DNA of 64,000 nt from an uncultured Thermodesulfobacteriota bacterium (GTDB lineage Bacteria; Desulfobacterota; JBBIRW01), in the NCBI GenBank assembly GCA_964505185.1, contig CAZDGM010000004.1, forward strand, positions 2,054 through 66,053. The letters are read 5' to 3'. Of this stretch, positions 6,204-64,000 are shown piece by piece. The notes beneath the pieces are model-generated. The model worked only from the letters and a program-made list of their open reading frames with translations. It searched no databases and was not told where the DNA came from. The position numbers and the translations under genes were made by a program. The first letter of the stretch is position 1, and every line of letters begins with the position of its first letter.

Positions 6204-7139
6204 ATGCAGCATGCACATGAACCAAAAAATGCATTCCATCTGCGCACATCCTCAGATGATAAATACACATACCGTCCTCGTGAAAGAAAACGCCTTTTTC
6301 TTTCCATGATTATCACAGCAGTCATGATGGTTGTTGAATTTATTGGAGGTATAATTATAGGGAGCCTTGCCCTTGTCAGCGATGCAGGACATATGTTTAC
6401 ACATTTTCTTGCACTTTCAGTCTCCCTCGGGGCAATCCTCCTTGCTGGAAGAAGGAGCAGCAGCAAGCACAGCTATGGATTTTACAGGATTGAGGTTCTC
6501 GCAGCACTCTTTAACGGTTCAACCCTCCTCATCATAACCTTCTATATTTTTTATGAGGGGATCATAAGGATTATAAATCCAAGACCCATCCATGAATTCT
6601 CTATGATTGTAATAGCATTCCTTGGTCTTGTTGTAAATATCATCTCTGCCCTTTTGCTTAAAGGTGTAAGCACTGAAGATCTCAATGTGAGGAGTGCCTT
6701 TCTTCACATGGTCGCCGATACTGCCTCATCAGTTGCCATACTTGCTGGTGCAATAGCAATACATTACACAAAATTCCTTGTTATAGATCCGATTCTGAGT
6801 ATAATCATTGCGTTCGCTATTCTTGTGTGGGGATATGATCTCGTAAGGAATTCAGTGAACATACTGCTTGAAAGAGCCCCGGAACACATCAACATCGAAG
6901 AGCTTTCAATGGATATAAGGAGAAGTAATCCAGATATCAAACATATTCATGATATACATGTCTGGACAATCACATCAGGTATGTATGCGATGACTGCACA
7001 CATCATTATTGACGATAGATTGATTTCCGAAACAGATGCAATATCACAGAAGATAAGAGATCTGCTTAATACAAAATATGATATAAACCATGCAACCCTT
7101 CAGTTTGAAACAGACTCAAGATCATGTTTATCATGTTAA
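6204..7139 (+). CDS. cation diffusion facilitator family transporter (CzcD/ZitB-like)
   Basis: Six TM segments; SDAGHMFTHF and HMVADTASSVAIL metal-site motifs; C-terminal cytoplasmic domain. Confidence 0.9.
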   Translation: MQHAHEPKNAFHLRTSSDDKYTYRPRERKRLFLSMIITAVMMVVEFIGGIIIGSLALVSDAGHMFTHFLALSVSLGAILLAGRRSSSKHSYGFYRIEVLAALFNGSTLLIITFYIFYEGIIRIINPRPIHEFSMIVIAFLGLVVNIISALLLKGVSTEDLNVRSAFLHMVADTASSVAILAGAIAIHYTKFLVIDPILSIIIAFAILVWGYDLVRNSVNILLERAPEHINIEELSMDIRRSNPDIKHIHDIHVWTITSGMYAMTAHIIIDDRLISETDAISQKIRDLLNTKYDINHATLQFETDSRSCLSC

Positions 7140-8209
7140 ATCAAAGGAATTTCAGCTCCATTCCACAATCTGTAATCTGAACCGAATCTGGCAGAAAATC
7201 TGCCAGCAATAATAAACCCACAAAGTATACACTTATTTCCTGAAAGATTGTATCTTTTAATGGAAAACCAATCCCTTTCTATCAGTATTGAATTACACAA
7301 TGGACAGATAGTCTTTGTTTCATCATCGATATTTCCCATATAAACATAAAGAAGCCCCTTTTCCTTTCCTATTTTCTGTGCCCTCTTTAATGTTGAAAGC
7401 GGTGTTACATTCCCGCCTGATAGCCTAAACTGAGGGAAAAATCTTGTGACATGCCACGGTGTGTCCACTCCAAGCTCTTTTGAAATCCATGAAGCAATTT
7501 TACTTAACTCATCTTCTGAATCATTAAATCCCGGTATAATATTTGTTACACATTCAACATGCATTCCCCATTTAAATTTTGCAAGCTTTGTAGCCTGGAG
7601 TATGGATGCAAAGTCCCTTATCCCTCCAATTCTGTTATATGTCTCTTCGGAAAATCCCTTTATATCAACCCTGAAGCAGTCTATATATGGTCCTATCATA
7701 TCAAGGGCCTCTGGAGTTATATAGCCATTTGTCACAAGATGTGTAAGAAGACGCTGGCTCCTTGCTTCCCTTGCTGAATCAATAATGAACTCAAGCCATA
7801 CGGAAGGCTCATTGTATGTCCATGATATGCCAAGACAATGAAATCTTTTTGCATACCGGACAACTTCGGAAGGACTCATTAAAACACCTCCACTATCCGC
7901 ATGAGACATCGACCAGTTCTGGCATCCAGGGCATTTAAAATTGCATCCAAATGTCCCCATTGAGATCCATATGCTTCCCGGATAGAAGTGGAAAAGCGGC
8001 TTCTTCTCAATTGGTGATACCGCCATGGAGAGCATCCTTCCATAATTTATGGCATAAAGTGTTCCATCGACGTTCCTTCTACCCCTGCAGAATCCCTTTC
8101 CTCCTGAAGGAATGACACATCTCCTTGGACAGACACCACACTGGCAGCTACCATCTTCCCTTTTAGTGTATATAAGGCATTCGGGCGGGTAATCAGGATG
8201 GGTCCTCAA
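7136..8209 (-). CDS. AmmeMemoRadiSam-system-type radical SAM enzyme (PFL-activating-enzyme-like)
   Basis: N-terminal Cys cluster CQCGVCPRRCVIPSGGKGFCRGRR followed by IEKKPLFHFYPGS and the radical-SAM motif GCNFKCPGCQNW. This is the TIGR04337-like signature. Confidence 0.8.
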   Translation of the reverse strand: MRTHPDYPPECLIYTKREDGSCQCGVCPRRCVIPSGGKGFCRGRRNVDGTLYAINYGRMLSMAVSPIEKKPLFHFYPGSIWISMGTFGCNFKCPGCQNWSMSHADSGGVLMSPSEVVRYAKRFHCLGISWTYNEPSVWLEFIIDSAREARSQRLLTHLVTNGYITPEALDMIGPYIDCFRVDIKGFSEETYNRIGGIRDFASILQATKLAKFKWGMHVECVTNIIPGFNDSEDELSKIASWISKELGVDTPWHVTRFFPQFRLSGGNVTPLSTLKRAQKIGKEKGLLYVYMGNIDDETKTICPLCNSILIERDWFSIKRYNLSGNKCILCGFIIAGRFSARFGSDYRLWNGAEIPLI

Positions 8210-8828: not shown

Positions 8829-9734
8829 TTACAGAATCCGTGAGAGTTCCCCGACAAGAATCCCTTCCTTTTCCAGCTCCTCAGCACCCTCCAGCGTAAG
8901 TGCCCTTTTTACAATTTCAACCCCTTCTTTCTTATCTTCAGGAAGCATAAGGTTTATCCTCAGGTAGCAGGATGCATGACTCATAAGGAATGAATCAATG
9001 GTAAGCTCTTCAAGGAATATCAGCGTCTCCTCCATTATCTCCCTCCTCGATGCGGGGATGAACATCCCCCTTTCTGCCATCTCAGAAAGGGGTGCTCCAG
9101 GTGGGAACATCAAGTTGTGAAGTCTAACTTCATCAGGATTTATGCGATTAAGAAGATGTGCAGTGTTCATTGCATGATTCCTTGAGTGCTCCTTTCCACC
9201 GAGACCCATTATAACGGAATGTGAAATCCTGAACCCTGCATCTTTCAGTTTCATGCTTGCCCTGTATATATCCTCTGAATTTACCCCCTTCCTCATAAAG
9301 GCAAGCACTTCATCATCTCCACTTTCAAGTCCCATATAGATCTTCCCGAGACCTGCCCTCTTTAGCAACTCAAGTTCCTCGGGTTTCTTTAGCATTACAA
9401 ACCTTGCCCCACCATAGCAGCTAATCTCTTTTGCATGGGGGTATTCATTCTTTATAATTTCCAGAACATCCAAGAGATATCGTGTCTTCAGCGCAATTAC
9501 ATTTCCTGCGGCAAGGAACACCCTTTTTGCAACCGCAGGTTTTGCTGACCTCACATAATCCCTTATCTGTTGAAGGGGTATTATCGAGAATGATTCAAAC
9601 TTATAATCCCCGCAGAAAAGGCATCTATTATAGGGGCATCCCCATGCAACAGGGATAACAAAGGAATCCCTCTCAATGGGTGGTCGGCACAATGAGTGAA
9701 ATTCCTCCCCTCTATCACCTTTCCCTGTATACAT
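8829..9734 (-). CDS. radical SAM domain protein with non-canonical Cx4Cx2C cluster motif
   Basis: VAWGCPYNRCLFCGDY has Cys spacing C-x4-C-x2-C. YMGLESGDDEVL is a HemN/Elp3-like SAM-binding stretch, and the TIM-barrel length is appropriate. Confidence 0.65.
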   Translation of the reverse strand: MYTGKGDRGEEFHSLCRPPIERDSFVIPVAWGCPYNRCLFCGDYKFESFSIIPLQQIRDYVRSAKPAVAKRVFLAAGNVIALKTRYLLDVLEIIKNEYPHAKEISCYGGARFVMLKKPEELELLKRAGLGKIYMGLESGDDEVLAFMRKGVNSEDIYRASMKLKDAGFRISHSVIMGLGGKEHSRNHAMNTAHLLNRINPDEVRLHNLMFPPGAPLSEMAERGMFIPASRREIMEETLIFLEELTIDSFLMSHASCYLRINLMLPEDKKEGVEIVKRALTLEGAEELEKEGILVGELSRIL

Positions 9735-10113
9735 GGAATATTCCGCTCCCCTTTGCAGTTATTTCCCTGTTTCCGTTATATATGGTAACTTCTGCAAACA
9801 CAACCCCCCTCTTCCTCTCAATAACCCTTGCTTCTGCAAGGGCTTCACCTTCTTTCAGTGGAGCCACATACTGCATATTGAGATTTACTGTAGCAATTCT
9901 TCTTTCATAGCCCAGGGTGCTTAAAACAGCTGCTGCCATCGATATATCAGCAAGGGATGCAATAACCCCTCCGTGAAGCCCTCCATATATGTGAAGAAGT
10001 TCACTCTTGATGGGAAGAACGTATCTTGCATACCCATCCTTGATTTCAAGAGCCTTCACACCAATATATTTTGAGAATGGCGATATGGGAATTTCCCTTT
10101 TCTCTTCCTTCAT
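9715..10113 (-). CDS. PaaI-family hotdog-fold thioesterase
   Basis: YGGLHGGVIASLADISMAAAV motif; about 130 aa. Confidence 0.8.
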   Translation of the reverse strand: MKEEKREIPISPFSKYIGVKALEIKDGYARYVLPIKSELLHIYGGLHGGVIASLADISMAAAVLSTLGYERRIATVNLNMQYVAPLKEGEALAEARVIERKRGVVFAEVTIYNGNREITAKGSGIFHVYRER

Positions 10114-11978
10114 TTCATATATATCTTAACCCTGTATCTGTCCCTAAGGCTTCTTACATACATCTTAAGAAAATCCTCACCCTTTATCTTTTTTAATTCC
10201 TCGATTAATTGATCCCTCTTCATTCCTCCTTCATCAGGTGATATCCTCTTCGAAAGCTTCACTATATAGAGTTTTCCATCCTTCTCTATGACCTTTGAAA
10301 GAATGGGGTTTTTCTCCCCAAGGGAAGCTATCTCTGAAGCCCATTGGCCGGACATAAAGGGCGCCATATTTAATTCTGATCTCCTCATGGGTTTTGTTTT
10401 ACCAGATCTGATCCATCCCTCCCTTGGATACTCCTTGAACGATCCTGATTTCAACGCCTGTGAAAGGATATCCTCTGCGATACCCCTTGCCTTTTTCATT
10501 GCCATTTCCCTTAGCAGCCTTTCCTTTACCCTGTTTTTTAGCTCGGAGAGCTCAGGAATCCTTGAATCCTCTCTTCTTACTACCTCAGCAACAATAGCTC
10601 TATCTTTTTCCACAATCTTTAATATCTCCCCCTCCTTTGAAATCAGTGCCTTTTTTATCAAACCTTCAGGGAGTGAATCTCTGTTCATCTCATTTATCAT
10701 TCCGGTTTCAAAAAGCCTTAATCCCTTTGAGGAGGCGTATTTATTAAGACCACCTGCCTTTGCTGCATCCCACACCGCCTTCTCCGCAATTTCGGAAAGA
10801 AAACCTGTTGCCTTCTCCTTCTTCAGGATCTCCATTATCTGCCTTTTTACCTGGATGAGGGGTTTCAGCTTCCCTTCATAAATCTTCTCCACCTTTATGA
10901 TATGGATACCATTCTTTGTTATTATAGGTTTGCTGAATTCTCCCTCCCTCATAGAAAATGCAACATTCGCGATATTGGGATCAAGCTCTGATTCACTGAA
11001 TAACAACACCTGGCCTGAACTAATTCCCTTCTGGTTAATAGAAAATTTCCTTGCAACGGTCGTGAAATCCCCTCCCTTACTCAACTCCTCATACGCCTCC
11101 CTGGCTCCCTTCCCTGCTTTCTCCACGGATTCGGGATCCCCGGATCTCAATGGAAAGTATATCTCCCTCAACCTTATACGACGCGCCTCCCGGAACAGAT
11201 GGGGATTATCCCTGTAGAAACCCTCGATCTCCTCATTGGAAATATTGATATCCTTCTCAACATCGCCGATACGGTATGTGATGAATCTCAATTTAACAGA
11301 TGGTGGGATTCGAAAATCCTCCCTGTGTTCCTCAAAGAAGGATCTGATATCCTCCTCCCTTATATCCCCATTGATCTTTATATATTCAGGGTTTATCTCG
11401 AGATAATCAAAAATAAGTCTCTCCTCCTTTATTCTGAAGTACTCATCGAGCTCAGCATCAGAAATTTTGATGGAAGACAGAAGGATCCCTGTCAACTTTC
11501 TGATAAGTATCTGCTCCCTTAGGGCATCCTCAAATTCACTTGCGGTTAATCCCGCTCTCGAAAGATATCCCCTGTAAAGACCGGGATTGAACTGGCCATT
11601 TTCCTGGAATAGCGGGAATTCCGCTATTGCATCCCTTAACTCCTGATTGCTTACCTTAAGACCAAGATTTTTTGCCTCCACAAGAAGAAGTGTTCTTTCT
11701 ATTAGTCCATCGAGAACCATCCTTTTTATGTCCAGTTTTTCAAGCATCTCCTCTGTAACTTGATTGCCGAATAATGCCCTGTATCTTTCCACCATCTCCC
11801 TGTAGGCACGGATAAATTCCCTCCCCCTGATGCTCAAGCCATCAACCTTTGCCACCACCTCACCTGCGCTGCTCCCTCTTCCTGTAAATCCGAAATAAAG
11901 AACGAAGGCAAGAATTACAATACCAAGGATTACCTTAATGATTATAGAGCTTGCATGCTTTCTCATGAAGTCAAGCAT
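10110..11978 (-). CDS. ppiD: periplasmic chaperone / peptidyl-prolyl isomerase, PpiD/SurA-like
   Basis: N-terminal membrane anchor, SurA-N-like domain, central parvulin-type PPIase region; 622 aa. Confidence 0.75.
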   Translation of the reverse strand: MLDFMRKHASSIIIKVILGIVILAFVLYFGFTGRGSSAGEVVAKVDGLSIRGREFIRAYREMVERYRALFGNQVTEEMLEKLDIKRMVLDGLIERTLLLVEAKNLGLKVSNQELRDAIAEFPLFQENGQFNPGLYRGYLSRAGLTASEFEDALREQILIRKLTGILLSSIKISDAELDEYFRIKEERLIFDYLEINPEYIKINGDIREEDIRSFFEEHREDFRIPPSVKLRFITYRIGDVEKDINISNEEIEGFYRDNPHLFREARRIRLREIYFPLRSGDPESVEKAGKGAREAYEELSKGGDFTTVARKFSINQKGISSGQVLLFSESELDPNIANVAFSMREGEFSKPIITKNGIHIIKVEKIYEGKLKPLIQVKRQIMEILKKEKATGFLSEIAEKAVWDAAKAGGLNKYASSKGLRLFETGMINEMNRDSLPEGLIKKALISKEGEILKIVEKDRAIVAEVVRREDSRIPELSELKNRVKERLLREMAMKKARGIAEDILSQALKSGSFKEYPREGWIRSGKTKPMRRSELNMAPFMSGQWASEIASLGEKNPILSKVIEKDGKLYIVKLSKRISPDEGGMKRDQLIEELKKIKGEDFLKMYVRSLRDRYRVKIYMK

Positions 11979-53485: not shown

Positions 53486-54631
53486 TTAAACCTTAAATCT
53501 GAGAAGTGCACCTATTTGAATGGGTTTATCGTTGTAATAAAAATCATAATGGATCTCTCTTAGTTCACTCCCTGTGCTTATAGATAGATTTACTGCATCA
53601 TCGACAATATTCTCCCTCTCCTCCATCTCCTTTCTGCAGTAGGGGCATGCCTCTTGCCTCCACCAGATATAACCGCACTCCTTGCATATGGCACCCTTTT
53701 CCCTGTAGCCTTCACGCACGATGAGCATGCGAACAGCCCCCCTCTGTATAGCGAAGAGTGTATTATCAAGTCCAAAACAACCAAGTCCCTTTGATGAAAC
53801 CTCTTTAAAAATTTCATCCATAAGCTTTTTCTCTTCCGCCTTTCTTATCTCCTCCTCAACCGATCTTATGACCTCCTGCACCTGAGATACTGGTGTGTCG
53901 ATAACCATATCCAGTCTCGCTGCAATCCTACTCTTCAGGTTATTTGGAAGATGGAGCTCAAATTTGCTGATGAGTTTCTGATTCCCCCCAATGATCATAT
54001 ATTCAATATCCCGAATTTTGAAGAATTCAGAGACTGCATCACTAACCCTTTTAAGGTATCTCTGCAGGTGATCCTCTATATGCCTCTCAATCCGTCTTTC
54101 CGCAAGTCCATACCACCCCGCCATCTTTACCTTCGATGGAACATCGCTTAGCATGTGCGATTCTTCACTTAAAATACCCATGTAGTAGTGGAATATACGG
54201 GATGCATCCCTGTCAAGGATTACCATTCCAAATCTATGATACCCATCCATCAGAAACAGAAGTGGTTTAATAAAAGGCCTCGAATCAACAACCATCATAT
54301 TTCTTACAGGCACTGGAAGGTTAAATAATTCCCAGAGTCCAGCATTGCGAGATGAGAAAAAAACGAGACCTTTTGTTCCTTTTCTCTCAAATTTCTGTAT
54401 TACAAAATTAAGGGTATCCTGGAGCTCTTTTTCAATCATTAATCTCTTTTCCCTCTCAACCTCAAGCCTTTCCATCTCCTCCTTCTTTTCCTTTATCAAT
54501 CCTTTAAGCACAATTTCATACTCCTTTTTTGGATACAACTTCCCATCGACATTCAGATAAAGACTCACCACAGGGGAATCCTTTGTATCCATTGAGATAA
54601 GCTCTCTTACCTTCTGTAAAACATTAACCAT
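53486..54631 (-). CDS. bacterial eRF1/Pelota-like (baeRF-type) protein with a C-terminal Zn-ribbon insert
   Basis: N-terminus PVVSLYLNVDG is the signature start of bacterial aeRF1-like families. The central region has MIIGGNQK. A CKECGYIWWRQEACPYCRK Zn ribbon is inserted in the C-domain. It ends 11 nt before the HlyD start. Confidence 0.5.
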   Translation of the reverse strand: MVNVLQKVRELISMDTKDSPVVSLYLNVDGKLYPKKEYEIVLKGLIKEKKEEMERLEVEREKRLMIEKELQDTLNFVIQKFERKGTKGLVFFSSRNAGLWELFNLPVPVRNMMVVDSRPFIKPLLFLMDGYHRFGMVILDRDASRIFHYYMGILSEESHMLSDVPSKVKMAGWYGLAERRIERHIEDHLQRYLKRVSDAVSEFFKIRDIEYMIIGGNQKLISKFELHLPNNLKSRIAARLDMVIDTPVSQVQEVIRSVEEEIRKAEEKKLMDEIFKEVSSKGLGCFGLDNTLFAIQRGAVRMLIVREGYREKGAICKECGYIWWRQEACPYCRKEMEERENIVDDAVNLSISTGSELREIHYDFYYNDKPIQIGALLRFKV

Positions 54632-54640
54632 AAAAACCTC

Positions 54641-55369
54641 CTATTTAGCTTTACCGTGATATATTGAAAACATCTCTTTCATGCGGATGGCATCTTCAAA
54701 CATCGAGATATTATTAAACATGAAATATCCTTCCTTAAAATCCTCTGTCATCTCAATGAGCTCCCTCAGATCACTATCAGTGTATTTATATCTGTATCCA
54801 TCCCTTCCATGCAATCGCAGATAGAATATTGAGAAACCTCGAGGCATCGTTCTGAAAGGATCCATGCATGGGACTAAATCAAGTTCTCTGCATATACGGT
54901 AGATCTGCTCATTTTCCCAGCATCCCCTCGGTTCCCATACGCATATTATCCCCTTCCTCTCGATCTTTTTGAAAAATCCTTTTAAATTTCTTATGCTCTC
55001 ATCTGATGGTATAAATGAGGAAGGGGTTTGAAAAACAACAATCCGTGATAAAAGGACTTCAGCAATTTTTCTTACAGCCTCCCACGCTTCAAAAACCTCA
55101 TCAGTATTCTGAAAATTTCCATATCTCCCCTTCTTACCCTCATCAATCCTCCTCTTTAATCTCCTGTATGTTGGGCTTGTAGGGGAATGGGTAATGAGCT
55201 GCCAGGCCTTTATAGTAAATTCAAAACCCTCAGGAACATCTTTTCTCCATTTCTCAATAGTTGAAAGCCGAGGTGGATCATAGAAGATCTGCTGAACTTC
55301 AACAACATCAAAATACCTCATATACCTTTCCCTTGATACGGAAAAGCCACAACATCCAACCTTTATCAT
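54641..55369 (-). CDS. DUF72 (UPF0759) TIM-barrel family protein
   Basis: N-terminus IKVGCCGFSV...YFDVVEVQQIFYDPP matches the DUF72 ...vGtsGW...fY.p signature. Confidence 0.75.
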   Translation of the reverse strand: MIKVGCCGFSVSRERYMRYFDVVEVQQIFYDPPRLSTIEKWRKDVPEGFEFTIKAWQLITHSPTSPTYRRLKRRIDEGKKGRYGNFQNTDEVFEAWEAVRKIAEVLLSRIVVFQTPSSFIPSDESIRNLKGFFKKIERKGIICVWEPRGCWENEQIYRICRELDLVPCMDPFRTMPRGFSIFYLRLHGRDGYRYKYTDSDLRELIEMTEDFKEGYFMFNNISMFEDAIRMKEMFSIYHGKAK

Positions 55370-55815
55370 AAATCTTTATTCGTGGAAATGTCTTTTATAA
55401 TTGCAGATGCCTTAAGAACGATATCCCTTTCACTATTATAATTCATAACCTTGACAGCCTCCTCAATCGGAAACCACCTTACCTCCTCAACCTCAAAGTC
55501 GTGATCTTCAACACTTCCAGAAAGATATTCAAGGAGATAGAAATGGACAGTTTTATTGATTTTGCTTTTGCTCTGCCTGTCATAAAACCAGTAGTTTATC
55601 TCCCCTATCTTATCCACAATCCTTCCATCAAGTCCTGTTTCCTCCTTTACCTCCCTTATGGCTGTCTTTTCAAAATCCTCTGATTCCTCAACGATCCCCT
55701 TTGGTAAGCACCAGATCCTTCCATCACCCCTACGGATAAGGGCAATAAATACCCTCTCTCCTTCTCTCCTGTATATGACACCTCCGGATGAGACCTGCTT
55801 TATAATTCTCCCCAT
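55366..55815 (-). CDS. Nudix hydrolase
   Basis: Nudix box GIVEESEDFEKTAIREVKEETGL; ATGA overlap with the DUF72 gene. Confidence 0.85.
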   Translation of the reverse strand: MGRIIKQVSSGGVIYRREGERVFIALIRRGDGRIWCLPKGIVEESEDFEKTAIREVKEETGLDGRIVDKIGEINYWFYDRQSKSKINKTVHFYLLEYLSGSVEDHDFEVEEVRWFPIEEAVKVMNYNSERDIVLKASAIIKDISTNKDL

Positions 55816-56885
55816 AGCGAACTCCTGCCAAGCTCTTTTCCAGAACTACATATCTTTAATGAACCCAGTTGAAGAAATTTTACCCTTGCTGGAACCTTAA
55901 GTGGTGTAAGAATATGAAATACACCTCTTCTTATATCAAATTTTATCAATATTCCAAGGGCAATTGTATTTAAATGCCTGTCACTCAGACCTACAAGGAG
56001 ATTTTCGAAATCCTCAATATCGTAAATCTCCAATTCATTAACAGAAAAGACATCCTTTATTCTAAAAAGATTTTCCCTGCTATAACCTCCCCTCGTGATT
56101 ATGGACATCCTGTTTATCTTTCTTTCCGCATAGAGCGCAGATGTTTCGAGTTCCCTCGAAAGGAAGGAAATGTCACTGCTTGTAACCCTCTTCCCAATCC
56201 CAATTGTTGCACCTATTATGGATATACCCTCGATGGGAAACTCCAATTCTGATGCCATGGAAAAATATTCTCCAAACATCCTCTCCCTGTATGCCTTTCT
56301 TATCTCCCTTTCCCTCTGTTTCACTGCTCCAACTGGCTTTAATTCATAGATCTTTAAATGATCCATCTTCCTGAAAGGATCCAAAATAGGCTCAAGCTCT
56401 CCATCATCAATCACAACAATGTTTTCTGGTTTAATTATATCTATTTTGTAAAGCTTAAGCGTCCTTGCTGCCCTTCCATGGATAAGACCTGATGTGTCAA
56501 CAATAGTGTATTCACTGCCAAGATAAGCTGACCTCTCCATAAGTGCCTTCACACCAGCAATAATAGGAACAAAGAATCCAACAGGTGAGGTGGAACCTAT
56601 GAATCTTGTTCCCACACATCTGATTTCGCATATACCTTCCTGCTTCTTCCTTGCAAGTCCTAATGCTATTGTTGTGGGAAGACCGATTGACTGTTGACCG
56701 ACATCTGTATCGAGCAAACTTACACGCTCACCTCGCATTGTAAGTTCATCAACGATAAACCTCGAGAGTGTGCTCTTTCCTGAATCGGTTTTGCCGAGAA
56801 TTACCGTTGGGCCCCTTCTCTTTCTTATTTCAGAAACAAGATCAACCCATTCGGGCGGGATCAGGATTTTATCTCTCCTTTCCAT
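55800..56885 (-). CDS. Clp1/Grc3-family polynucleotide 5'-hydroxyl kinase
   Basis: P-loop ILGKTDSGKSTL and the family-specific clasp motif LLDTDVGQQSIG (D-x-D-x-GQ). Three-domain length of 361 aa, as in archaeal Clp1. Confidence 0.8.
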   Translation of the reverse strand: MERRDKILIPPEWVDLVSEIRKRRGPTVILGKTDSGKSTLSRFIVDELTMRGERVSLLDTDVGQQSIGLPTTIALGLARKKQEGICEIRCVGTRFIGSTSPVGFFVPIIAGVKALMERSAYLGSEYTIVDTSGLIHGRAARTLKLYKIDIIKPENIVVIDDGELEPILDPFRKMDHLKIYELKPVGAVKQREREIRKAYRERMFGEYFSMASELEFPIEGISIIGATIGIGKRVTSSDISFLSRELETSALYAERKINRMSIITRGGYSRENLFRIKDVFSVNELEIYDIEDFENLLVGLSDRHLNTIALGILIKFDIRRGVFHILTPLKVPARVKFLQLGSLKICSSGKELGRSSLWGEL

Positions 56886-56903
56886 TTTAACTCACCTGAA
56901 ATT

Positions 56904-58001
56904 TCAATAGGCATCGGAAAGCAGGTGGACATTTCCGATTCTGACCCTTTTTAATCCCTCTTCATGGGCAACTTCCCTACATTTTTCCGCATGGGATCTT
57001 GATGTCCTCGGCAGATCTGTAAGATAAAACTGGGGATAGAATCCAAGAAGGGAAAAGGGGATTTCAGGGTCAAGGGAAGAGATAAAGCGTGCTATCAATC
57101 TTACCTCCTTTTCATCCACATATCCCGGAACAAGCAGTGTGCTTGCAATAAGCAGAGGAGGCTCCCGTCTCCTTTTAATAAATGATGCTGCGAAACGGAA
57201 ATTCTCCAGGGTCTGATCATTATATGTATTGCACAGTGCAAGATGGAGATTTTTATCCCATGCCTTTAAGTCAAACTTCACACAACCTCCGCTATCAAGT
57301 GCAATATTCATAATCTCTTCGAGAAAATCCCTCCTCATGGAACCATTCGTCTCCCAGCAGATCCTCAATATCCTGCCCCTCTTTCTCTTCAATGCAATCC
57401 TTGATGCTTTTATAGAATGGATAATCTGTGATGAAGGATCCCCACCAAAATAGCACACGCAGCTTGTTCTCTCATCGATAGCATCAATCAGCTCCTCGGC
57501 AGATATACCTCTTCCTTTTATGTCCATCCTTCTGAAATGCCAGTTCTGACAGAAAAGGCAGTTGAATGTGCATGCGTGATAGAAAACAGCGAGATTTTTA
57601 TAACCTATCTCAGGCCCTTTTTTGTAACAGAACTCGGGATAACCCGAGCCTGTTCCCCCTGGACATACCCAGTCAGCAACACAGTTTGTCGGGAGCGGAT
57701 CATAATAGTAGCTAAGATAGCCTTCTCCTCCTCCCCTGAGATAACCATCTTCAAACCTCCTTATGCCGCAAAAACCTCTTTCACCTTCTGGGATAATACA
57801 TCTGTTGCCGCAGAAATCACATTCCTTACCACCACCCTTTGGGATCTCCTCCCTTAAACGAAATCTCCTTCTGCTTTCTCTATGCAGTTCGAAAATATCT
57901 TCTTTAATATCGAAAGAACCTTCCCTTATGCAATCCGCACAATATCCAAGAATCGATGAAATGGTCAATGAACGATTATTACAACTTTTACACCTGCCCA
58001 C
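56904..58001 (-). CDS. PFL-activating-enzyme-like radical SAM protein with N-terminal Zn ribbon (paralogue of the AmmeMemoRadiSam-type enzyme at 7136..8209)
   Basis: CKSCNN...CADC ribbon; CDFCGNRCIIPEGERGFCGIRR (same Cys cluster as CQCGVCPRRCVIPSGGKGFCRGRR at 7136..8209); radical-SAM motif ACTFNCLFCQNW. Confidence 0.75.
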   Translation of the reverse strand: MGRCKSCNNRSLTISSILGYCADCIREGSFDIKEDIFELHRESRRRFRLREEIPKGGGKECDFCGNRCIIPEGERGFCGIRRFEDGYLRGGGEGYLSYYYDPLPTNCVADWVCPGGTGSGYPEFCYKKGPEIGYKNLAVFYHACTFNCLFCQNWHFRRMDIKGRGISAEELIDAIDERTSCVCYFGGDPSSQIIHSIKASRIALKRKRGRILRICWETNGSMRRDFLEEIMNIALDSGGCVKFDLKAWDKNLHLALCNTYNDQTLENFRFAASFIKRRREPPLLIASTLLVPGYVDEKEVRLIARFISSLDPEIPFSLLGFYPQFYLTDLPRTSRSHAEKCREVAHEEGLKRVRIGNVHLLSDAY

Positions 58002-58009
58002 TTATCTCC

Positions 58010-59278
58010 CTAAAAAAGCCTCATCTGTCTGTCATCACTTATCGGGATATCTTTCCCATGCTCGCCCTCATCATCCCATGCAATGGATACCTTACCGTAA
58101 ATACCATCATACCCCGGAATTATCTTTACAAAACCCTGCCTCACCTTCATAACGCCGGAATATATTTTTTGTGGAAGGAGCTTTGAAAGCTCTTCAGGGG
58201 TAAGGTTCAGCAGTATATTAAATTCCGATCCGCATTGGGAGACTATTTTTCTGTACTCCTTCTCAACCCTTTCTGTTCCCACACCAACCCCCAATGCATC
58301 TGCAATGATCTCCTCAAGCGGAATCAGATGTTTTGCAGGAATTGCACCTTCTGGAACATACCCCTCAGGTCTGTCAGCAAGCTCCTCAACCCTGTGCATA
58401 ACACCTATGGTTAATGGAGATTTACATACAGGACACCTGTTATTATACTTTTTACTCTCAACAGGGGAGAAGGAAACTCCACAATTCCTATGACCATCGA
58501 AATGGTATTTACCTTCCTGAGGAAAGAACTCGATTGTAAAGAGAAACCTATCCCTTGATTTTGTTTTTAAGGATTCAACAATATCCCTGTATGTAAGAGG
58601 GCAATTGAAAACATTTGCCTCCCTTCCAATTCTCGATGGTGAATGGGCATCTGAATTAGAGATCAGGGTAATATTATCAAGTGCTGATAGACGCCAGTTC
58701 ATCTGTGGATCTGAGGAAAGACCTGTTTCAATGACCCTTATCAGATCTGCCTGATCCTCAAATGCCTCCTCTATGGAATCAAAACCGGAGAATGAACCGA
58801 AGAGGGAAAACCAGGGTGTCCAGACATGTGCAGGGATGATCATTGCATCAGGAGAAATATCGCAAACCATCTTTACCAGATCCTTTACAGGAAATCCGAA
58901 CACCGGTCTTCCATCCGATCCGATCTTACCCAGTCGTGAAAGCAATGAATTAAGTTTTCCAGCAGCTTCAAAGGATGGAAGGAAGATGATGCAGTGAATC
59001 TTTCTGAGCTTTCCACCACTTGAAAAAATGTTGCTAACTTCTCCTGTCAGCATGAATTTTACCGATTGATCACCCTTCTTTAATGAGAATAGCCCATTTC
59101 CCTCAGGCTTGAGCTTTCCCATCAATTCTGCGAAGTATGTTGGATGGGTAAAATCACCTGTTCCAAGAAGGTTTATCCCCTTCAGTTTTGCCCATTTTGC
59201 CATATTCTCTACATCCATATCCCTGCTCGTTGCCCTGCTATACTTCGAATGAACATGAAAATCTGCAATAATCCTCAT
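58010..59278 (-). CDS. endonuclease Q-like protein (PHP-fold nuclease, TIGR00375-type) with C-terminal Zn finger
   Basis: N-terminal IADFHVHSKYSRA...LLGTGDFTHP; internal GLSSD, SNSDAHSP, GKYHFDGHRNC; Zn finger CPVCKSPLT. These are the motifs I associate with archaeal EndoQ. Confidence 0.7.
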   Translation of the reverse strand: MRIIADFHVHSKYSRATSRDMDVENMAKWAKLKGINLLGTGDFTHPTYFAELMGKLKPEGNGLFSLKKGDQSVKFMLTGEVSNIFSSGGKLRKIHCIIFLPSFEAAGKLNSLLSRLGKIGSDGRPVFGFPVKDLVKMVCDISPDAMIIPAHVWTPWFSLFGSFSGFDSIEEAFEDQADLIRVIETGLSSDPQMNWRLSALDNITLISNSDAHSPSRIGREANVFNCPLTYRDIVESLKTKSRDRFLFTIEFFPQEGKYHFDGHRNCGVSFSPVESKKYNNRCPVCKSPLTIGVMHRVEELADRPEGYVPEGAIPAKHLIPLEEIIADALGVGVGTERVEKEYRKIVSQCGSEFNILLNLTPEELSKLLPQKIYSGVMKVRQGFVKIIPGYDGIYGKVSIAWDDEGEHGKDIPISDDRQMRLF

Positions 59279-59317
59279 GAAAACCTCCCTTTGAATATTG
59301 CACCTTCCGCTTTCTGG

Positions 59318-59572
59318 CTATTCAATAACCCTGTAGACGAGATCAGAAGGTCTTACCCTCTCACTGACCTTTATTCCCACAAGATCCCCCTCTGATGCCG
59401 TTTCAACATTCTGGTGTTCAATCTGCATGGACTCAACCTTCTGCACAAAGTCAGTGGTGCTCCCCTGAAAATGAAGGGAGTCCCCAACCTTTATAGAACC
59501 CTTTGTGATCTTTATTGCTGCAACCCCTATCTTTGCAAAATATTTAACAACCTCTCCAACCTTTTCTTCCAT
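59318..59572 (-). CDS. small EF-Tu domain-2-like beta-barrel protein (translation elongation factor-like protein family)
   Basis: 84 aa with a KVGD..H..G....F.Q.V.S.Q......E.A..GD.VGIKV pattern like EF-Tu domain II. Confidence 0.5.
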   Translation of the reverse strand: MEEKVGEVVKYFAKIGVAAIKITKGSIKVGDSLHFQGSTTDFVQKVESMQIEHQNVETASEGDLVGIKVSERVRPSDLVYRVIE

Positions 59573-59593
59573 AAAAACCTCCTGATTCAGGTT

Positions 59594-61315
59594 TTAACCT
59601 CTCCCCTTAGAGGTCATCTTAATAAGTTCATTAAGGGGAAGGGTATTCAATACATCATCCTTTGTCAGCCAGCCTCTCCTCGCTACAGCGATACCAAATT
59701 CCATCAGTTCAAGGTGATTCATGATATGTGCATCCGTATTTATGCAAAGCTTTACACCCAACTCCTTTGCCCTCCTTGAGAGGATATCATTTAAATCCAT
59801 CCTCTGGGGGTAAGCATTTATCTCAAGGGAAATATTCCTCCTCTTCGCCTCTTTCATAATAAGGTCAAAGTCCAGCTCATAAGCCTCCCTTTCTCCAATA
59901 AGCCTTCCTGTGGGATGGGCTATGATATTCACATAGTGGTTAGACATGGCATTCAGGATCCTCTTTGTAAGAACCTCTTTTCCTGCCTTGAACCCATAAT
60001 GGATCGATGCAATAACTATATCAAGCTTCTTTAAAACCTCATCAGGTAGATCAAGTGATCCATCTCCAAGGATGTCAACCTCAATCCCCTTAAGTATCCT
60101 TATCTTTGATTTCCTGTTGAGCCTTTCAATCTCCTCTATCTGCTCCATAACTTCCTCTGGTCCCATCCCCCTTGCAATCCCAAGTGATTTTGTGTGATCT
60201 GCAATCGCTATATATTCGTAACCCTTTTTTTCTGCATATCTGGCAATCTCCTCTATTTCATGAGCACCATCACTCCACTTAGAGTGTATGTGGAGATCCC
60301 CTTTTATATCAGAGAGTTCAATAAGCTGGGGAAGTCTTCCTTCGGCTGCTGCCTCAATCTCGCCCTGATCTTCCCTTAATTCAGGTGGAATCCATTTGAG
60401 TCCGAGTGCTCTGTAAACCTCCTCCTCCTCCTTCCCCGCAATCTTTTTGCCTGTTTTTTCATCGAAAACGCCATATTCACTTATCTTCAGGCCCAGCCTA
60501 TCTGCTATCTGTCTTAGATGTATATTATGATTTTTTGATCCCGTGAAATATTGAAGCGCTGCACCGAAACTTTCAGGCTCAACAACCCTCAGATCAACCT
60601 GAAGTCCATCATGGGTAAGCACGCTGGACTTTGTTGAACCCTTTGCAAGCACATCAGAAACATAAGGAAGAGAAACAAAGTAATCCATGATCTTTTTGGG
60701 ATCATGGGAAATTATGAGTATGTCTACATCCTTTATGGTTTCCTTCATCCTCCTTAGACTTCCCGCTATATTCAACCTCTTTACCTCTTTGAGCGAAAGT
60801 AGTGCCTTTTCAAATTCCCTGGCAATGGGAAGAACCCTTCCGAGGAGCATCCTTTCCCTTCCCTTTTTATAAAGCTCTATACCCTTTCTGATATTCTCCT
60901 CGGTTTTTTCCCTTATCCCTGGAAGTTTACACAGTTTGTGACTTTTTGCAGCCTCTTCCAGTTCTTCTATCGTTTTTATTCCCAGGGATTCATATATGAG
61001 CTTTGCAGTCTTTGGTCCAAGACTCGGTATGGAGAGCATCTGCACAAGTCCTCTGGGGATCTCCTTTTTCAGCCTCTCATAATCCTCAAATGTCCCTCTT
61101 TCTATGATCTCAACAATCTTCTGTGCGAGGTCTTTGCCTATGCCAGGGATCTTTGTAAGCTCGCCCCTTTTTGAAATATCCTCTATATTCTCCGTTAGAT
61201 TCTCTATATTCTGGGCTGCTTTCCTGTAAGCCCTGATCCTGAAAGGGTTCTCATCTTTGATTTCGAGGAGATCAGCAACGTCGTTGAATATCCTTGCAAT
61301 CTCCATGTTTTTCAT
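59594..61315 (-). CDS. polX: family X DNA polymerase (PolX) with C-terminal PHP 3'-5' exonuclease/phosphoesterase domain
   Basis: 8-kDa domain (FRIRAYRKAAQNI); HhH motifs (IPGIGKDLAQKI, LPGIREKT); Pol-beta nucleotidyltransferase (GSLRRMKETIKDVDILI); PHP domain (DLHIHSKWSDGAHEIEEIARYAEKKGYEYIAIADH). Confidence 0.9.
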   Translation of the reverse strand: MKNMEIARIFNDVADLLEIKDENPFRIRAYRKAAQNIENLTENIEDISKRGELTKIPGIGKDLAQKIVEIIERGTFEDYERLKKEIPRGLVQMLSIPSLGPKTAKLIYESLGIKTIEELEEAAKSHKLCKLPGIREKTEENIRKGIELYKKGRERMLLGRVLPIAREFEKALLSLKEVKRLNIAGSLRRMKETIKDVDILIISHDPKKIMDYFVSLPYVSDVLAKGSTKSSVLTHDGLQVDLRVVEPESFGAALQYFTGSKNHNIHLRQIADRLGLKISEYGVFDEKTGKKIAGKEEEEVYRALGLKWIPPELREDQGEIEAAAEGRLPQLIELSDIKGDLHIHSKWSDGAHEIEEIARYAEKKGYEYIAIADHTKSLGIARGMGPEEVMEQIEEIERLNRKSKIRILKGIEVDILGDGSLDLPDEVLKKLDIVIASIHYGFKAGKEVLTKRILNAMSNHYVNIIAHPTGRLIGEREAYELDFDLIMKEAKRRNISLEINAYPQRMDLNDILSRRAKELGVKLCINTDAHIMNHLELMEFGIAVARRGWLTKDDVLNTLPLNELIKMTSKGRG

Positions 61316-61368: not shown

Positions 61369-62589
61369 CTAACATACGGGAAACCTCCCATTTAAAAGCA
61401 TCTCGCAGAAGGATCCTATACGGGAGAGCTCCTCATCGATTATATCCTCACAGCTTCTGGATATCTTTTTAAAACTCGCCCGATCCTTCTTCAATATCTG
61501 TGCCGATGCGATCTTTGGTCGATCAATGGGAGAGCCGATCTGACTGCATAACCACACATATACCTCCCTTATTCCATCCACCTCTTCATATATCCTGTTT
61601 GCAATCTGGTGGGCAAGAATATTGTATATCTTTCCCACATGACTTACAGGATTTTTCCCGGCAGCTGCCTCTGCTCCTGTTGGCCTGTTCAGTGCAATTA
61701 TCCCGTTTACCCTGTTTCCTCTTCCAACCTGACCTGAATCTGCATCTTCAGCTGAGGTCCCAAGGACACTCAGATATACACCCTCAACCCCCCTCCTTTT
61801 CCTGTCAAGGGTATTGAAGTATAGATTGGTATTCCTGAAGTAGCCTTTATTTAAAAGGGTAAAGTTTTTTATCTCCCTCATTACAACCCTTTTCCTCTCG
61901 AAATAATATGCCTCATTCTCGATAAATCTATCTATAAAAGGCATAGCAATGGTAAGGTGAATATCCCTCCCCTCCCTGAATCCCATAACCTTCACATCCT
62001 CACCTGTTTCAGGAAACCTGTTTTTGAACTCTGAAGAATTAAGGAATCTTTCAATCTCCAGAACAAGCTTCTCCGTCGGTGTAAGCGGTGCATAACCAAC
62101 AGCAGCTGATGTATCATTGGATCCATACAATCCCTTCCTATCCTTTTTGAATAAAGATGTAAGTTCCGCTGATCCCGGTTTCAACTCAACCTGATAACGG
62201 ACATGCTCTTCAGGATCAACAAACCTTAAATTCTTTCTTATCCAGTCCTTTGCAGTTTCAATTGTGATCTCCTCCACCGCTATCACTTTTCCATCCACCC
62301 TGATCGTTGCTCTATCACCTATTATAATCTTCATAGGCTCTATAACCCTTCCACCACCAAATCTTCTCTCCACACCACCTGCAACAAGAAGCCCCTTGTC
62401 TATGTTAAAATGGCACATACCCCCTGTGAGTCGTAAATACTCGCGTGAAAGTGCCCTTGAGACCTCCTCCATTATGGAATCACATATGAAATCAGGATGA
62501 CCAAGGCCCTTGCGCTCAACTATCTCAACCTTCTGTTCTTCAATCGGGATTGACTTCAGTTCTTCCACAATTATCTTCCTTACACCCAT
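61369..62589 (-). CDS. archaeal-type S-adenosylmethionine synthetase (MAT, PF01941-type)
   Basis: ERKGLGHPDFICDSI, NDTSAAVGYAPLTPTEKLVLEIERFLNS, GEDVKVMG, VYLSVLGTSAEDADSGQVGRGNRVNG, GKNPVSHVGKIYNILAHQIA are near-identical to M. jannaschii MAT motifs. Start placed at MGVRKIIVEE, preceded by GGAGAGGGGAAGG; the ORF-track start at 62604 sits inside that RBS. Confidence 0.9.
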   Translation of the reverse strand: MGVRKIIVEELKSIPIEEQKVEIVERKGLGHPDFICDSIMEEVSRALSREYLRLTGGMCHFNIDKGLLVAGGVERRFGGGRVIEPMKIIIGDRATIRVDGKVIAVEEITIETAKDWIRKNLRFVDPEEHVRYQVELKPGSAELTSLFKKDRKGLYGSNDTSAAVGYAPLTPTEKLVLEIERFLNSSEFKNRFPETGEDVKVMGFREGRDIHLTIAMPFIDRFIENEAYYFERKRVVMREIKNFTLLNKGYFRNTNLYFNTLDRKRRGVEGVYLSVLGTSAEDADSGQVGRGNRVNGIIALNRPTGAEAAAGKNPVSHVGKIYNILAHQIANRIYEEVDGIREVYVWLCSQIGSPIDRPKIASAQILKKDRASFKKISRSCEDIIDEELSRIGSFCEMLLNGRFPVC

Positions 62590-62746
62590 CCTTCCCCTCT
62601 CCATTTTCTTTTTTTCTCTTCTGGATTGCCTGCTGGGCTATACAGTCCCCATCCGTTGGATCACAACCCTTCTTTCTCAATTCACACCATCCATCCATGC
62701 TATACTTGCAATACATCTATTCCTTTTTACCACAAAAAGGGTTCAA

Positions 62747-64000
62747 CTATAAACCCCTTATTTTCTTTTTCAATTCCCTCAGCAAGTCGATATCCCATCC
62801 AGATTTTCTGCAGCATAAGATGGAATTGTTATGAAAAAGGGGCTCCTCCTCAATGGGAAATGGTGATGCAGCAACAGCCTCTTTCCACATCTCCGTTCCC
62901 GGAATGGGTGAGTATTCAGCAAGCATCGGTTTTGCACCGCAGGTATGAACGAATACGGCTGTATCGAGAACCTCACGGGAGTGCTGTCCTGGAAGACCGC
63001 ACATTATATAAACCCCTATATCATCCCTCCTGTATCCAGCTTTTCTAAGGGATTTTACGCAATCAATGAACTCACTCTCCGTTACCTTCGCTCCTTTTCT
63101 CTCATGCCACTCATCATCTCTTACCTCAAATCCAAGTCTTATGGTTTTGAATCCTGAAAGATAAAGTAACCGAGCAATCTCCTCATCTATAAATCTTATA
63201 TGAAGCCCGTTGGGACAGTGAAACCTGAGTTGAAGATTCCTTTTGATTATCTCTTTGAGTAAGGGAACAACATATTCATATGCATTAACAAGGAGTGCAT
63301 CATCGTAGAACACAAAATCAAGGCAGCCAAACCTGTTATGCCAGTAAAGGACCTCCTTTAAAACATTCTCAGGGGATCTTCTTTTAAATGAAGGGAAGAG
63401 CATATTGGAGGCGCAGTAAGAACATTGGAATGGACAGCCTCTTGAGGTTATGACAGTGATATAATTGATCCTCCTCAAGAGATCAAAGGCGGGGTATGGA
63501 AGGGTATCCGGTGAAAGCGCATCGGGAACAAAATCAGGTTCAATCTTGAATAACTCCTTAATTATCTGTAGAATTGCATTTTCCCCATAGCCCTTAACAA
63601 TATAATCAGCTCCGGAATATTTGAGCGCATGCTCATAGCAGAGTGTTGCATATATCCCACCCAGTACCACAGGTATCCCTGGAAAGTTTCTCTTAAGGAT
63701 TGATATAGCCTCAAAAACGCCCTGATACCAGTATGTCATCCCGGATGTGACAAGAATAAGGTCAGGTGAAGGGGACATATTTAACTCCTTGATAAATAGG
63801 TCCTCTGGAAGACCAAACCTCTTGTATCTCCTTGGTATTGATGAAAGCTTTTCGGGCTTCTTTACCTCTGTCCAGAAGAACTCCCCTCTGCCATCATACC
63901 TTCTCTTAATCGGTTTTCTCTTATAAAGGTCCAGGGAAGGGTGGTGTATATCCAGTGCATCTATAAAGGTGATTGTAAAGCCATTCTCTCTTAAAATGGA
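62747..64000 (-). CDS. B12-binding-domain radical SAM protein (N-terminus lies beyond the window end)
   Basis: Radical-SAM motif TSRGCPFQCSYCAS. The reading frame stays open from 63779 to 64000 with no stop (ENGFTITFIDALD... is B12-binding-domain-like), so the Met at 63778 is internal. Confidence 0.8.
   Translation of the reverse strand, partial: SILRENGFTITFIDALDIHHPSLDLYKRKPIKRRYDGRGEFFWTEVKKPEKLSSIPRRYKRFGLPEDLFIKELNMSPSPDLILVTSGMTYWYQGVFEAISILKRNFPGIPVVLGGIYATLCYEHALKYSGADYIVKGYGENAILQIIKELFKIEPDFVPDALSPDTLPYPAFDLLRRINYITVITSRGCPFQCSYCASNMLFPSFKRRSPENVLKEVLYWHNRFGCLDFVFYDDALLVNAYEYVVPLLKEIIKRNLQLRFHCPNGLHIRFIDEEIARLLYLSGFKTIRLGFEVRDDEWHERKGAKVTESEFIDCVKSLRKAGYRRDDIGVYIMCGLPGQHSREVLDTAVFVHTCGAKPMLAEYSPIPGTEMWKEAVAASPFPIEEEPLFHNNSILCCRKSGWDIDLLRELKKKIRGL

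Follow-up and report, generated by a model that had tools for sequence, protein, structure and literature searches.

Do the genes packed on one strand of this DNA serve a common purpose, and is that purpose the repair of DNA? The question is raised by seven minus-strand genes at 54641-61315 of the stretch analysed here (the window), which comprises 64,000 nucleotides of contig CAZDGM010000004.1 from an uncultured sediment bacterium of the Thermodesulfobacteriota. In transcription order, these genes encode PolX, a small protein resembling domain 2 of EF-Tu (EFTuD2), a homologue of endonuclease Q (EndoQ), a radical S-adenosylmethionine (SAM) enzyme (rSAM), a Clp1-like kinase, a Nudix hydrolase and a DUF72 protein. 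An initial annotation of the sequence had presented the first six as a candidate repair system. The results reported here incline us, with somewhat more confidence than doubt, to a looser reading, according to which a DNA-repair neighbourhood of fluid composition, with EndoQ and the DUF72-Clp1 pair at its core, has in these seven genes the form that it takes in one lineage. The functional link that had been suggested gains support, as subsets of these genes re-associate in unrelated lineages with changed order, whereas the notion of a fixed six-gene unit does not hold.

Enzyme families encoded by the seven genes

The six open reading frames listed in the initial annotation are all present on the minus strand, and Pfam and NCBIfam profile searches returned the family that had been named for each of them, with intact catalytic motifs. 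The boundary of the cluster had been misplaced, as a start at 55800 misses nearly the whole Nudix gene (55366-55815).

The 422-aa product of the gene at 58010-59278 belongs, as predicted, to the EndoQ family. It matched TIGR00375 over model positions 2-374 of 374 with 196.5 bits, a score that does not reach the curated cut-off of 326.6, and it aligned with PfuEndoQ (5zb8) over residues 3-399 (E=1.2e-53). The conserved elements include DFHVHS (DxHxHS), E80, H95, PAHVWTPW, NSDAHSP and the zinc-finger cluster of Cys266, Cys282 and Cys285. Homologues about 64-65% identical to this protein bear the NCBI name 'endonuclease Q family protein', and more than 8000 EndoQ homologues were retrieved, with relatives across many bacterial phyla. 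Archaeal members of the family and the EndoQ of Bacillus pumilus have been reported to nick 5' of deoxyuridine (dU), deoxyinosine (dI) or apurinic/apyrimidinic (AP) sites. The window protein lacks the PIP box of the archaeal enzymes, and its C-terminus (58010-58027) reads DDRQMRLF. Of 120 bacterial homologues of EndoQ (P0048-P0167), 113 terminate in Q[LMIV]x[LMIF]F, the tails of the Patescibacteria proteins being of the QxxLF type. Judged by its residues, the EndoQ tail resembles the bacterial beta-clamp-binding pentapeptide, and it would mirror the archaeal contact between the PIP box and PCNA. No mention of a clamp-like motif at the C-terminus of EndoQ was found in the PubMed Central open-access and bioRxiv literature.

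The gene upstream of that of EndoQ (59318-59572) encodes the 84-aa EFTuD2, which matched PF03144 (GTP_EFTU_D2) with 33.1 bits (cut-off 30.3). This protein is weakly similar to Pbp11, the nearest characterised stand-alone barrel of the EF-Tu domain 2 type, which binds tRNA (PMC9540759). By analogy, EFTuD2 may be a nucleic-acid-binding accessory of EndoQ.

Regarding the kinase, the assignment of the 361-aa protein (55800-56885) to the Clp1/Grc3 family was confirmed by a match of its residues 31-209 to positions 1-187 of the 188 in PF16575 (CLP1_P), with 119 bits compared to a cut-off of 26.6, and its fold combines a P-loop domain with a Clp1-type C-terminal domain. A comparison of 20 homologues showed no variation at G31, D34, G36, K37, D61, G63, Q64, R196 and R200, while at least 90% of the set share S38 and D59. 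The Walker A, Walker B and lid arginines align with GPTDVGKST, ELDVGQ and RSKDFRRECR of human Clp1. Within the clasp, T131 and G133 are kept and the position of the Trp is occupied by Leu (DTSGLIHG vs human TCGWVKG). The eukaryotic N-terminal beta-sandwich domain is missing, with about 25 residues before the P-loop, and a short form without this domain is usual in bacterial Clp1 (PMC6777427). The window protein is a bacterial member of the Clp1/Grc3 family with a predicted polynucleotide 5'-OH kinase activity. The evolutionary study of Clp1 gives neither genomic context nor physiological role for the bacterial enzymes.

PolX (59594-61315; 573 aa), encoded by the first gene in transcription order, scored 603.6 bits with the equivalog NF006375 (cut-off 426) and aligned over its full length with PolX of Thermus thermophilus (ttPolX, 3au2; E=7e-166, about 50% identity). 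From this alignment, the polymerase aspartates are the DxD in KDVDILI and a third Asp in QVDLRV, and the ligands of the C-terminal PHP domain (HxH, H, E, H, H and DxH) are all aligned with those of ttPolX. The window protein is, on this alignment, a canonical bacterial PolX predicted to consist of a polymerase beta-like core and a C-terminal PHP domain. The 149-aa Nudix protein matched PF00293 with 84.5 bits, and its translation contains a complete Nudix box (GX5EX7REUXEEXGU pattern), GIVEESEDFEKTAIREVKEETGL, which reads G-x5-E-x7-REVKEETG. Its scores with the NCBIfam equivalogs were all far below the cut-offs, the best match being the MutT1 N-terminal domain with 65 bits vs 475. It is a small MutT-like hydrolase of predicted activity, the gene of which overlaps both neighbours.

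The 365-aa rSAM (56904-58001) is PFL-AE-like: it matched Radical_SAM with 51.8 bits and possesses the CX3CX2C motif and a PFL-AE-like partial barrel. The best NCBIfam scores remained below the respective cut-offs, with 77.5 bits vs 220 for AmmeMemoRadiSam (TIGR04337) and 40.2 vs 231.75 for PFLA. Neither AMMECR1 and Memo genes nor a glycyl-radical enzyme gene were detected with Pfam and NCBIfam among the cluster genes or their flanks. A true AmmeMemoRadiSam identity was rejected on the grounds of this score and of the absent AMMECR1 and Memo partners. Also unlike the AmmeMemoRadiSam and PFL-AE enzymes, the window protein carries an additional Cys-rich extension at its N-terminus, about 135 residues long and containing eight invariant cysteines; its family is highly conserved and measures about 368 aa. 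Two more radical-SAM genes lie about 50 kb away on the minus strand, at 7136-8209 and 8829-9734. The former encodes a more canonical paralogue of the cluster rSAM (about 23% identity), and such a canonical paralogue is found directly beside a 368-aa-type rSAM in L167 and L171.

The last of the seven genes in transcription order (54641-55369) encodes the DUF72 protein, which matched PF01904 with 113.7 bits. DUF72 has been predicted to adopt an EndoIV/UVDE-like TIM barrel, a fold like that of DNA-repair endonucleases (PMC3828134, PMC11791011); in the literature the family is enriched near PolB2, and a paper of 2025 still calls it unassigned. A PDB sequence search with the window protein returned no match at E<=0.001, and the EndoIV/UVDE-like fold of DUF72 therefore rests on the literature.

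Associations of the genes in other bacteria

Gene neighbourhoods were compared using two anchors. The EndoQ-anchored set consisted of 80 GTDB species genomes, 79 of which lie outside the window's own species, and about 10 kb around EndoQ were searched with hidden Markov models (HMMs) of the families. The Clp1-anchored set consisted of 80 metagenome contigs, which fall into about 20 lineages when grouped at 70% identity. The module HMMs gave zero matches in 342 kb of control loci.

Five of the seven window families are reunited, in changed order, in a lineage termed here MOD2, which comprises L010 (a metagenome-assembled genome (MAG) of Thermodesulfobacteriota), L101, L125, L128, L159, L161 and partial contigs such as L098. 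The fullest arrangement, EFTuD2-rSAM-DUF763-EndoQ-DUF72-Clp1-SPL-like rSAM-DUF488, is found in L101 and L161, on one strand and with very short gaps. The set is less complete in L010, which has no EFTuD2, rSAM or DUF72 matches, and L125 stops at the end of its contig. Identities between the MOD2 and window proteins are 62% for EndoQ, 56% for rSAM, 58% for EFTuD2, 55% for DUF72 and about 35% for Clp1. In a rough neighbour-joining tree, the Clp1 proteins of MOD2, L168, L090 and L091 fall in one clade and that of the window in another, the two not being sisters, which suggests that the association of Clp1 with its neighbours in MOD2 and in the window is either ancient or was assembled twice.

The commonest partner of Clp1 proved to be not PolX but DUF72, which the initial annotation had omitted. 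The DUF72 gene adjoins or overlaps that of Clp1 in MOD2 (L098, L101, L125, L128, L159, L161), in L091 and in L172, corresponding to 4 of about 24 sampled Clp1 lineages, and wherever the two genes co-occur they are joined by start/stop overlaps or very short gaps. A Poisson estimate for this adjacency gave about 4e-8, a rough value that is uncorrected for phylogeny and is based on assumed figures of 3000 genes in a genome and a 4-gene window. DUF72 was also found downstream of EndoQ in L021, L046 and L047. On these comparative grounds, DUF72 belongs to the recurrent set. In Brocadiales, DUF72-Clp1-NTPase_1-DUF488 (L172) and Clp1-rSAM-NTPase_1 (L168) occupy the same chromosomal position, with two to three of the seven families.

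Around EndoQ, and always on its strand, EFTuD2 was detected in 13 of the 79 loci, each time upstream, and PolX in nine, mostly of Patescibacteria and each time downstream. Nudix was present in seven loci, a related rSAM in five, DUF763 in four, DUF72 in three and Clp1 in one. The arrangement in Patescibacteria is EFTuD2...EndoQ...(DUF72)...PolX-Nudix, with Nudix after PolX in 6-7 loci and four to five of the seven families represented. The better-supported cores are EFTuD2-EndoQ and DUF72-Clp1. Since subsets of the window genes co-occur in other bacteria in different orders, they probably represent a real but variable DNA-repair toolkit.

Other genes were repeatedly observed next to EndoQ. A SLOG cluster-4 protein (PF18306, about 180 aa) is encoded directly upstream of EFTuD2 in Patescibacteria (L021, L027, L034, L041, L046, L047, L062, L066), in Omnitrophota a related SLOG gene comes after that of EndoQ, and a same-strand SLOG gene was present at 18 of the 79 EndoQ loci overall. 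A gene for a 165-aa HIT-family protein adjoins that of EndoQ in WOR-3 and others, being located downstream in four loci (L071, L073, L083, L086) and just upstream in L069. HIT enzymes include aprataxin, which removes 5'-adenylate, another theme of end processing. In four Patescibacteria loci (L021, L027, L034, L059), the gene of the RNA 3'-phosphate cyclase RtcA stands head-to-head with that of EndoQ. On contigs unrelated to one another, a DUF498/Mth938-like gene (PF04430) was seen beside EndoQ (L021, L027, L032, L046, L059), beside Clp1 (L087, L088) and beside rSAM (L170).

Clp1 likewise has neighbours of its own. A 4.5-kb contig (L091:190-4430) encodes, on one strand, Ku, a 275-aa minimal ATP-dependent DNA ligase, a MerR/TPR protein, DUF72 and Clp1, and in L137 a ligase fragment lies directly upstream of Clp1. 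In three assemblies of Candidatus Brocadia (L002-L004:8268-11077), the stop codon of recJ (DHH/DHHA1/RecJ_OB) and the start codon of clp1 share one base. A histidine-phosphatase (PGAM-like) gene overlaps clp1 from upstream in L093, L094, L120 and L131, and an MBL-fold protein of about 309 aa is encoded directly upstream of Clp1 in L092, L115, L119, L142 and L147; both were assigned by reading the sequences and may constitute further pairings of a kinase with a phosphoesterase. RtcA is divergent from Clp1 in L173 (4883-5926). Two thirds of the Clp1 metagenome matches, 52 contigs within L095-L166, form a single lineage (at least 70% identity) with a Clp1 of about 300 aa and variable non-repair neighbours such as aldehyde:ferredoxin oxidoreductase, ABC transporters and sigma-54 activators.

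Chromosomal setting and competing explanations

From PolX to DUF72, the successive gaps measure 21, 39, 8, 18, -16 and -4 nucleotides; as read directly in the sequence, the Clp1 and Nudix genes share 16 nucleotides and the Nudix and DUF72 genes share four (ATGA). Regarding the range of -16 to +53 given for the six genes in the initial annotation, the first value is indeed the Clp1/Nudix overlap, whereas the second is the distance from PolX to an upstream SAM synthetase gene (61369-62604, minus strand), outside the six. The membership of this archaeal-type SAM synthetase (PF01941, 556 bits; NF003363, 655 bits) in the cluster is doubtful, and no recurrence of it with EndoQ or Clp1 was seen in the sampled loci. 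It might provide the radical-SAM enzymes with SAM, and a polyamine/SAM block fits equally well. An archaeal-type SAM synthetase is found here in a genome of otherwise bacterial character, and its counterpart in the relative L007 (2662-3973) follows speD, speE and an MBL-fold gene. Further upstream, a minus-strand gene for a B12-binding radical-SAM protein (62747-64000; PF02310 and PF04055), a possible outlying member, leaves the window: its reading frame is open to base 64000, the 343-aa call takes an internal ATG as its start, and its orthologue in L007 has 489 aa. Homologues of this protein with 45-50% identity are encoded directly downstream of EndoQ in two Deltaproteobacteria-type MAGs (L012:4594-5604 and L017:11618-12550).

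On the other side, an eRF1-like baeRF gene (53486-54631) lies nine nucleotides past DUF72, and the downstream flank further contains HlyD/ABC exporter and cytochrome c biogenesis genes. The baeRF product matches baeRF family 10 and comes near the MSMEG_1130-type ribosome hibernation factors in NCBIfam, below the cut-off. In L007, the upstream order is hisA-hisF-hisIE-speD-speE-MBL-B12-rSAM-MAT. Rfam and tRNA scans gave no match near the cluster, the sole tRNA of the window being located at 307-382, and the GC content is even (0.39-0.44). The best match is a MAG labelled 'Deltaproteobacteria bacterium SLF170214_bin_359'.

A number of observations weigh against a repair neighbourhood, and they have to be set beside the rival explanation that the seven are independent housekeeping genes, chance neighbours in a compact co-directional stretch that perhaps holds two or three small operons (possibly one for SAM and radical-SAM genes, one for PolX and EndoQ and one for Clp1, Nudix and DUF72). 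Tight co-directional spacing had been noted in the initial annotation, yet an unbroken minus-strand run of at least 25 genes with equally short gaps, along which the GC skew is negative, extends from 35085 to beyond 64000, and therefore strand and spacing delimit no six-gene unit. Histidine, polyamine, transporter and cytochrome-biogenesis genes all lie nearby. Promoter- and terminator-like sites occur at the frequency expected from shuffled sequence, with none inside any cluster gap, and thus delimit no transcription units. Co-transcription of the cluster would agree with its short gaps, with its overlapping start and stop codons and with the absence of terminator-like sites between its genes, but the unrelated neighbours are no different in this respect. 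The Clp1-EndoQ-PolX synteny does recur in the close relatives L007 (about 95% identity) and L001 (75-89%), which keep the whole seven-gene order; they also keep the unrelated transporter and cytochrome-biogenesis flanks, so that this is plain collinearity and no evidence of selection. In no sampled lineage beyond the window's own were Clp1, EndoQ and PolX found together. Most EndoQ, Clp1 and rSAM loci elsewhere are without the other members: Clp1 is missing from 78 of the 79 EndoQ loci, the Clp1 loci contain EndoQ in 5 of 80 and PolX in 0 of 80, and about 70 of these 80 have no repair neighbour (52 of them being the single lineage described above). Loci of the rSAM family had no repair neighbours in four of five further phyla sampled (Aminicenantes, Chloroflexi and two more contigs); the rSAM family was consequently rejected as an independent anchor, and its link is weak outside three lineages. 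The Patescibacteria loci with PolX, Nudix and DUF72 are syntenic beyond these genes and may go back to a small number of independent events, possibly one. In about 14 genomes of Omnitrophota (L023-L025, L031, L037-L040, L043, L044, L050, L054, L067, L082; EndoQ mostly at about 10001-11250), EndoQ lies within pyrR-pyrB-pyrC-EndoQ-pyrK-pyrD-pyrF, a series of same-strand genes only a few nucleotides apart, which is an unexpected link between a uracil-in-DNA nuclease and an operon of the uridine monophosphate pathway. PolX neighbourhoods, for their part, are class-specific and have no universal partner, with ZapA/MutS2 in Firmicutes, LigD in Alphaproteobacteria and a stand-alone PHP protein in Deinococci (PMC9226535). 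Finally, the sequence of events that had been envisaged, leading from EndoQ to Clp1, fails in its linear form: the cut made by EndoQ is already a ligatable nick with 3'-OH and 5'-phosphate ends (PMC4357722), and therefore a 5'-kinase has no task directly after it. Despite these points we consider chance adjacency unlikely, as it does not explain why MOD2 unites five of the seven families in changed order, why DUF72-Clp1 is found in four Clp1 lineages and Clp1-rSAM again in Brocadiales, why EFTuD2-EndoQ occurs across phyla with fixed polarity, or why Clp1, Nudix and DUF72 are joined by start/stop overlaps.

The genes might instead be directed mainly at RNA and act in RNA end-healing, in tRNA or rRNA repair or in ribosome quality control, with Clp1 as an RNA kinase, the EFTuD2 barrel as a tRNA binder, Nudix as an RNA pyrophosphohydrolase and the eRF1-like gene as the tie to translation. 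Such a role would suit the preference of Thermus scotoductus Clp1, a demonstrated polynucleotide kinase, for single-stranded RNA over DNA (PMC6777427), a result that also counts against a repair function, as well as the binding of tRNA by Pbp11, the RtcA genes divergent from EndoQ (four Patescibacteria loci) and from Clp1 (L173), the position of a baeRF family-10 gene resembling ribosome hibernation factors nine nucleotides after DUF72, and the RppH type of several NCBIfam matches of the Nudix protein, all below cut-off. It is nevertheless improbable in our view: EndoQ and PolX, the active sites of which are conserved, are enzymes that act on DNA, and Clp1 elsewhere neighbours Ku, ATP-dependent DNA ligase, RecJ, SPL-like radical-SAM and DUF72. 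Moreover, no baeRF gene was seen to accompany the set outside the window lineage in a profile scan of the sampled loci, and RtcB or another RNA ligase is absent in or near the cluster. An anti-phage defence system or mobile-element cargo can be effectively excluded and deserves almost no credence, even though Nudix, PHP, P-loop kinase and radical-SAM domains are known in some defence systems. In PADLOC, five of the seven proteins had no meaningful match, and those of the other two were weak and generic, at the level of the domain (Nudix with PDC-S07, 32 bits; P-loop with mad8, 25 bits). The uniform GC content, the housekeeping flanks, the lack of an integrase or tRNA nearby and the syntenic context in relatives argue in the same direction.

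A proposed two-arm pathway and its known counterparts

Returning to the DNA-repair neighbourhood that we favour, we infer its enzymatic steps and the cooperation between its proteins from the identities and arrangements described above. Two cooperating arms are proposed, one formed by EndoQ, EFTuD2, PolX and Nudix and the other by Clp1 and DUF72. In the first arm, EndoQ, probably held on the beta clamp by its C-terminal QxxLF tail and assisted by the EFTuD2 barrel as a putative nucleic-acid-binding helper, would nick 5' of deaminated or abasic residues. PolX would extend from the 3'-OH left by EndoQ, its PHP domain trimming blocked or mismatched 3' ends, and the MutT-like Nudix protein would sanitise the nucleotide pool, keeping damaged or non-canonical nucleotides from resynthesis. 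In the second arm, Clp1 would phosphorylate the 5'-OH ends of breaks other than EndoQ nicks, while DUF72, the PHP domain of PolX or both would clean 3'-phosphate-type ends. Together, the kinase and the 3'-cleaner could turn 3'-phosphate/5'-OH breaks, arising for example by hydrolysis at embedded ribonucleotides or by nuclease attack, into ligatable ones, and would be a two-protein counterpart of PNKP. The contig on which DUF72 and Clp1 follow Ku and a ligase (L091) fits this end-healing arm.

The first arm can be compared with the archaeal EndoQ excision repair of Pyrococcus and Thermococcus, which involves PCNA. Both have a nuclease of the same family with PHP and zinc-finger motifs, the very end of which resembles a clamp-binding motif in the window protein and carries one in the archaeal enzymes, and in both a DNA polymerase would be expected to act next. 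By contrast, the putative motif in the window is of the bacterial QxxLF type, the polymerase is PolX instead of PolB or PolD with FEN1, and nothing corresponding to EFTuD2, DUF72, Clp1, the radical-SAM enzyme or Nudix has been described for the archaeal pathway. PolX is also known from bacterial base excision repair in Thermus thermophilus and Bacillus subtilis; the window protein is collinear with ttPolX and keeps its active-site residues, but the published PolX neighbourhoods, unlike the window, are without EndoQ, Clp1, DUF72 and Nudix.

The second arm recalls the PNKP-type systems (T4 Pnkp, mammalian PNKP and bacterial Pnkp-Hen1), which likewise pair a 5'-OH kinase with a 3'-phosphoesterase, in the window a candidate one; the ligase that completes their pattern of kinase, phosphoesterase and ligase is found in L091 and L137. 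The kinase in the window is, however, of the Clp1 type and not of the T4-Pnk type, a phosphatase of the DxDxT or calcineurin type is absent, and the candidate phosphoesterases (DUF72 and the PHP domain of PolX) are separate proteins. A resemblance to bacterial non-homologous end joining by Ku and LigD is seen in L091, where DUF72-Clp1 after Ku and an ATP-dependent ligase recall the phosphoesterase and polymerase domains of LigD. Unlike in that system, Ku and ligase are absent from the window, and the link consists of one 4.5-kb contig and one ligase-Clp1 contig.

As the initial annotation had surmised, no described operon combining Clp1, EndoQ and PolX was found in the PubMed Central open-access and bioRxiv literature, and the same searches revealed no work linking the EndoQ, Clp1 and DUF72 families or their neighbourhoods. 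What is described here is a repair neighbourhood whose families are all known, and not a new category. To our knowledge, the published EndoQ pathway covers archaea only and EndoQ is regarded as rare in bacteria; we further know of only one published study of a bacterial Clp1, which showed activity and no physiological role.

A wider interpretation, which we put forward tentatively and with more doubt than belief, is that EndoQ, EFTuD2, the 368-aa rSAM, DUF763, DUF72, Clp1, DUF488, the SPL-like rSAM, PolX and Nudix belong to one repair network, widespread in bacteria and so far undescribed. The steps of excision repair that are missing downstream of or parallel to EndoQ would be carried out by its members, with DUF72 and Clp1 as a PNKP-like DNA end-healing device that could also feed joining by Ku and ligase.

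Taken together, these results open to test which events follow or accompany the cut made by EndoQ in bacteria, and what purpose the rare and patchily distributed bacterial Clp1 kinases serve. For DUF72, DUF763 and DUF488, the neighbourhood network provides in each case a repair hypothesis with named partners. If DUF72-Clp1 is a DNA end-healing module tied to Ku and ligase, it would constitute a new accessory route in bacterial strand-break repair and, should the network interpretation be true, bacterial Clp1 and DUF72 would thereby gain their first physiological roles.

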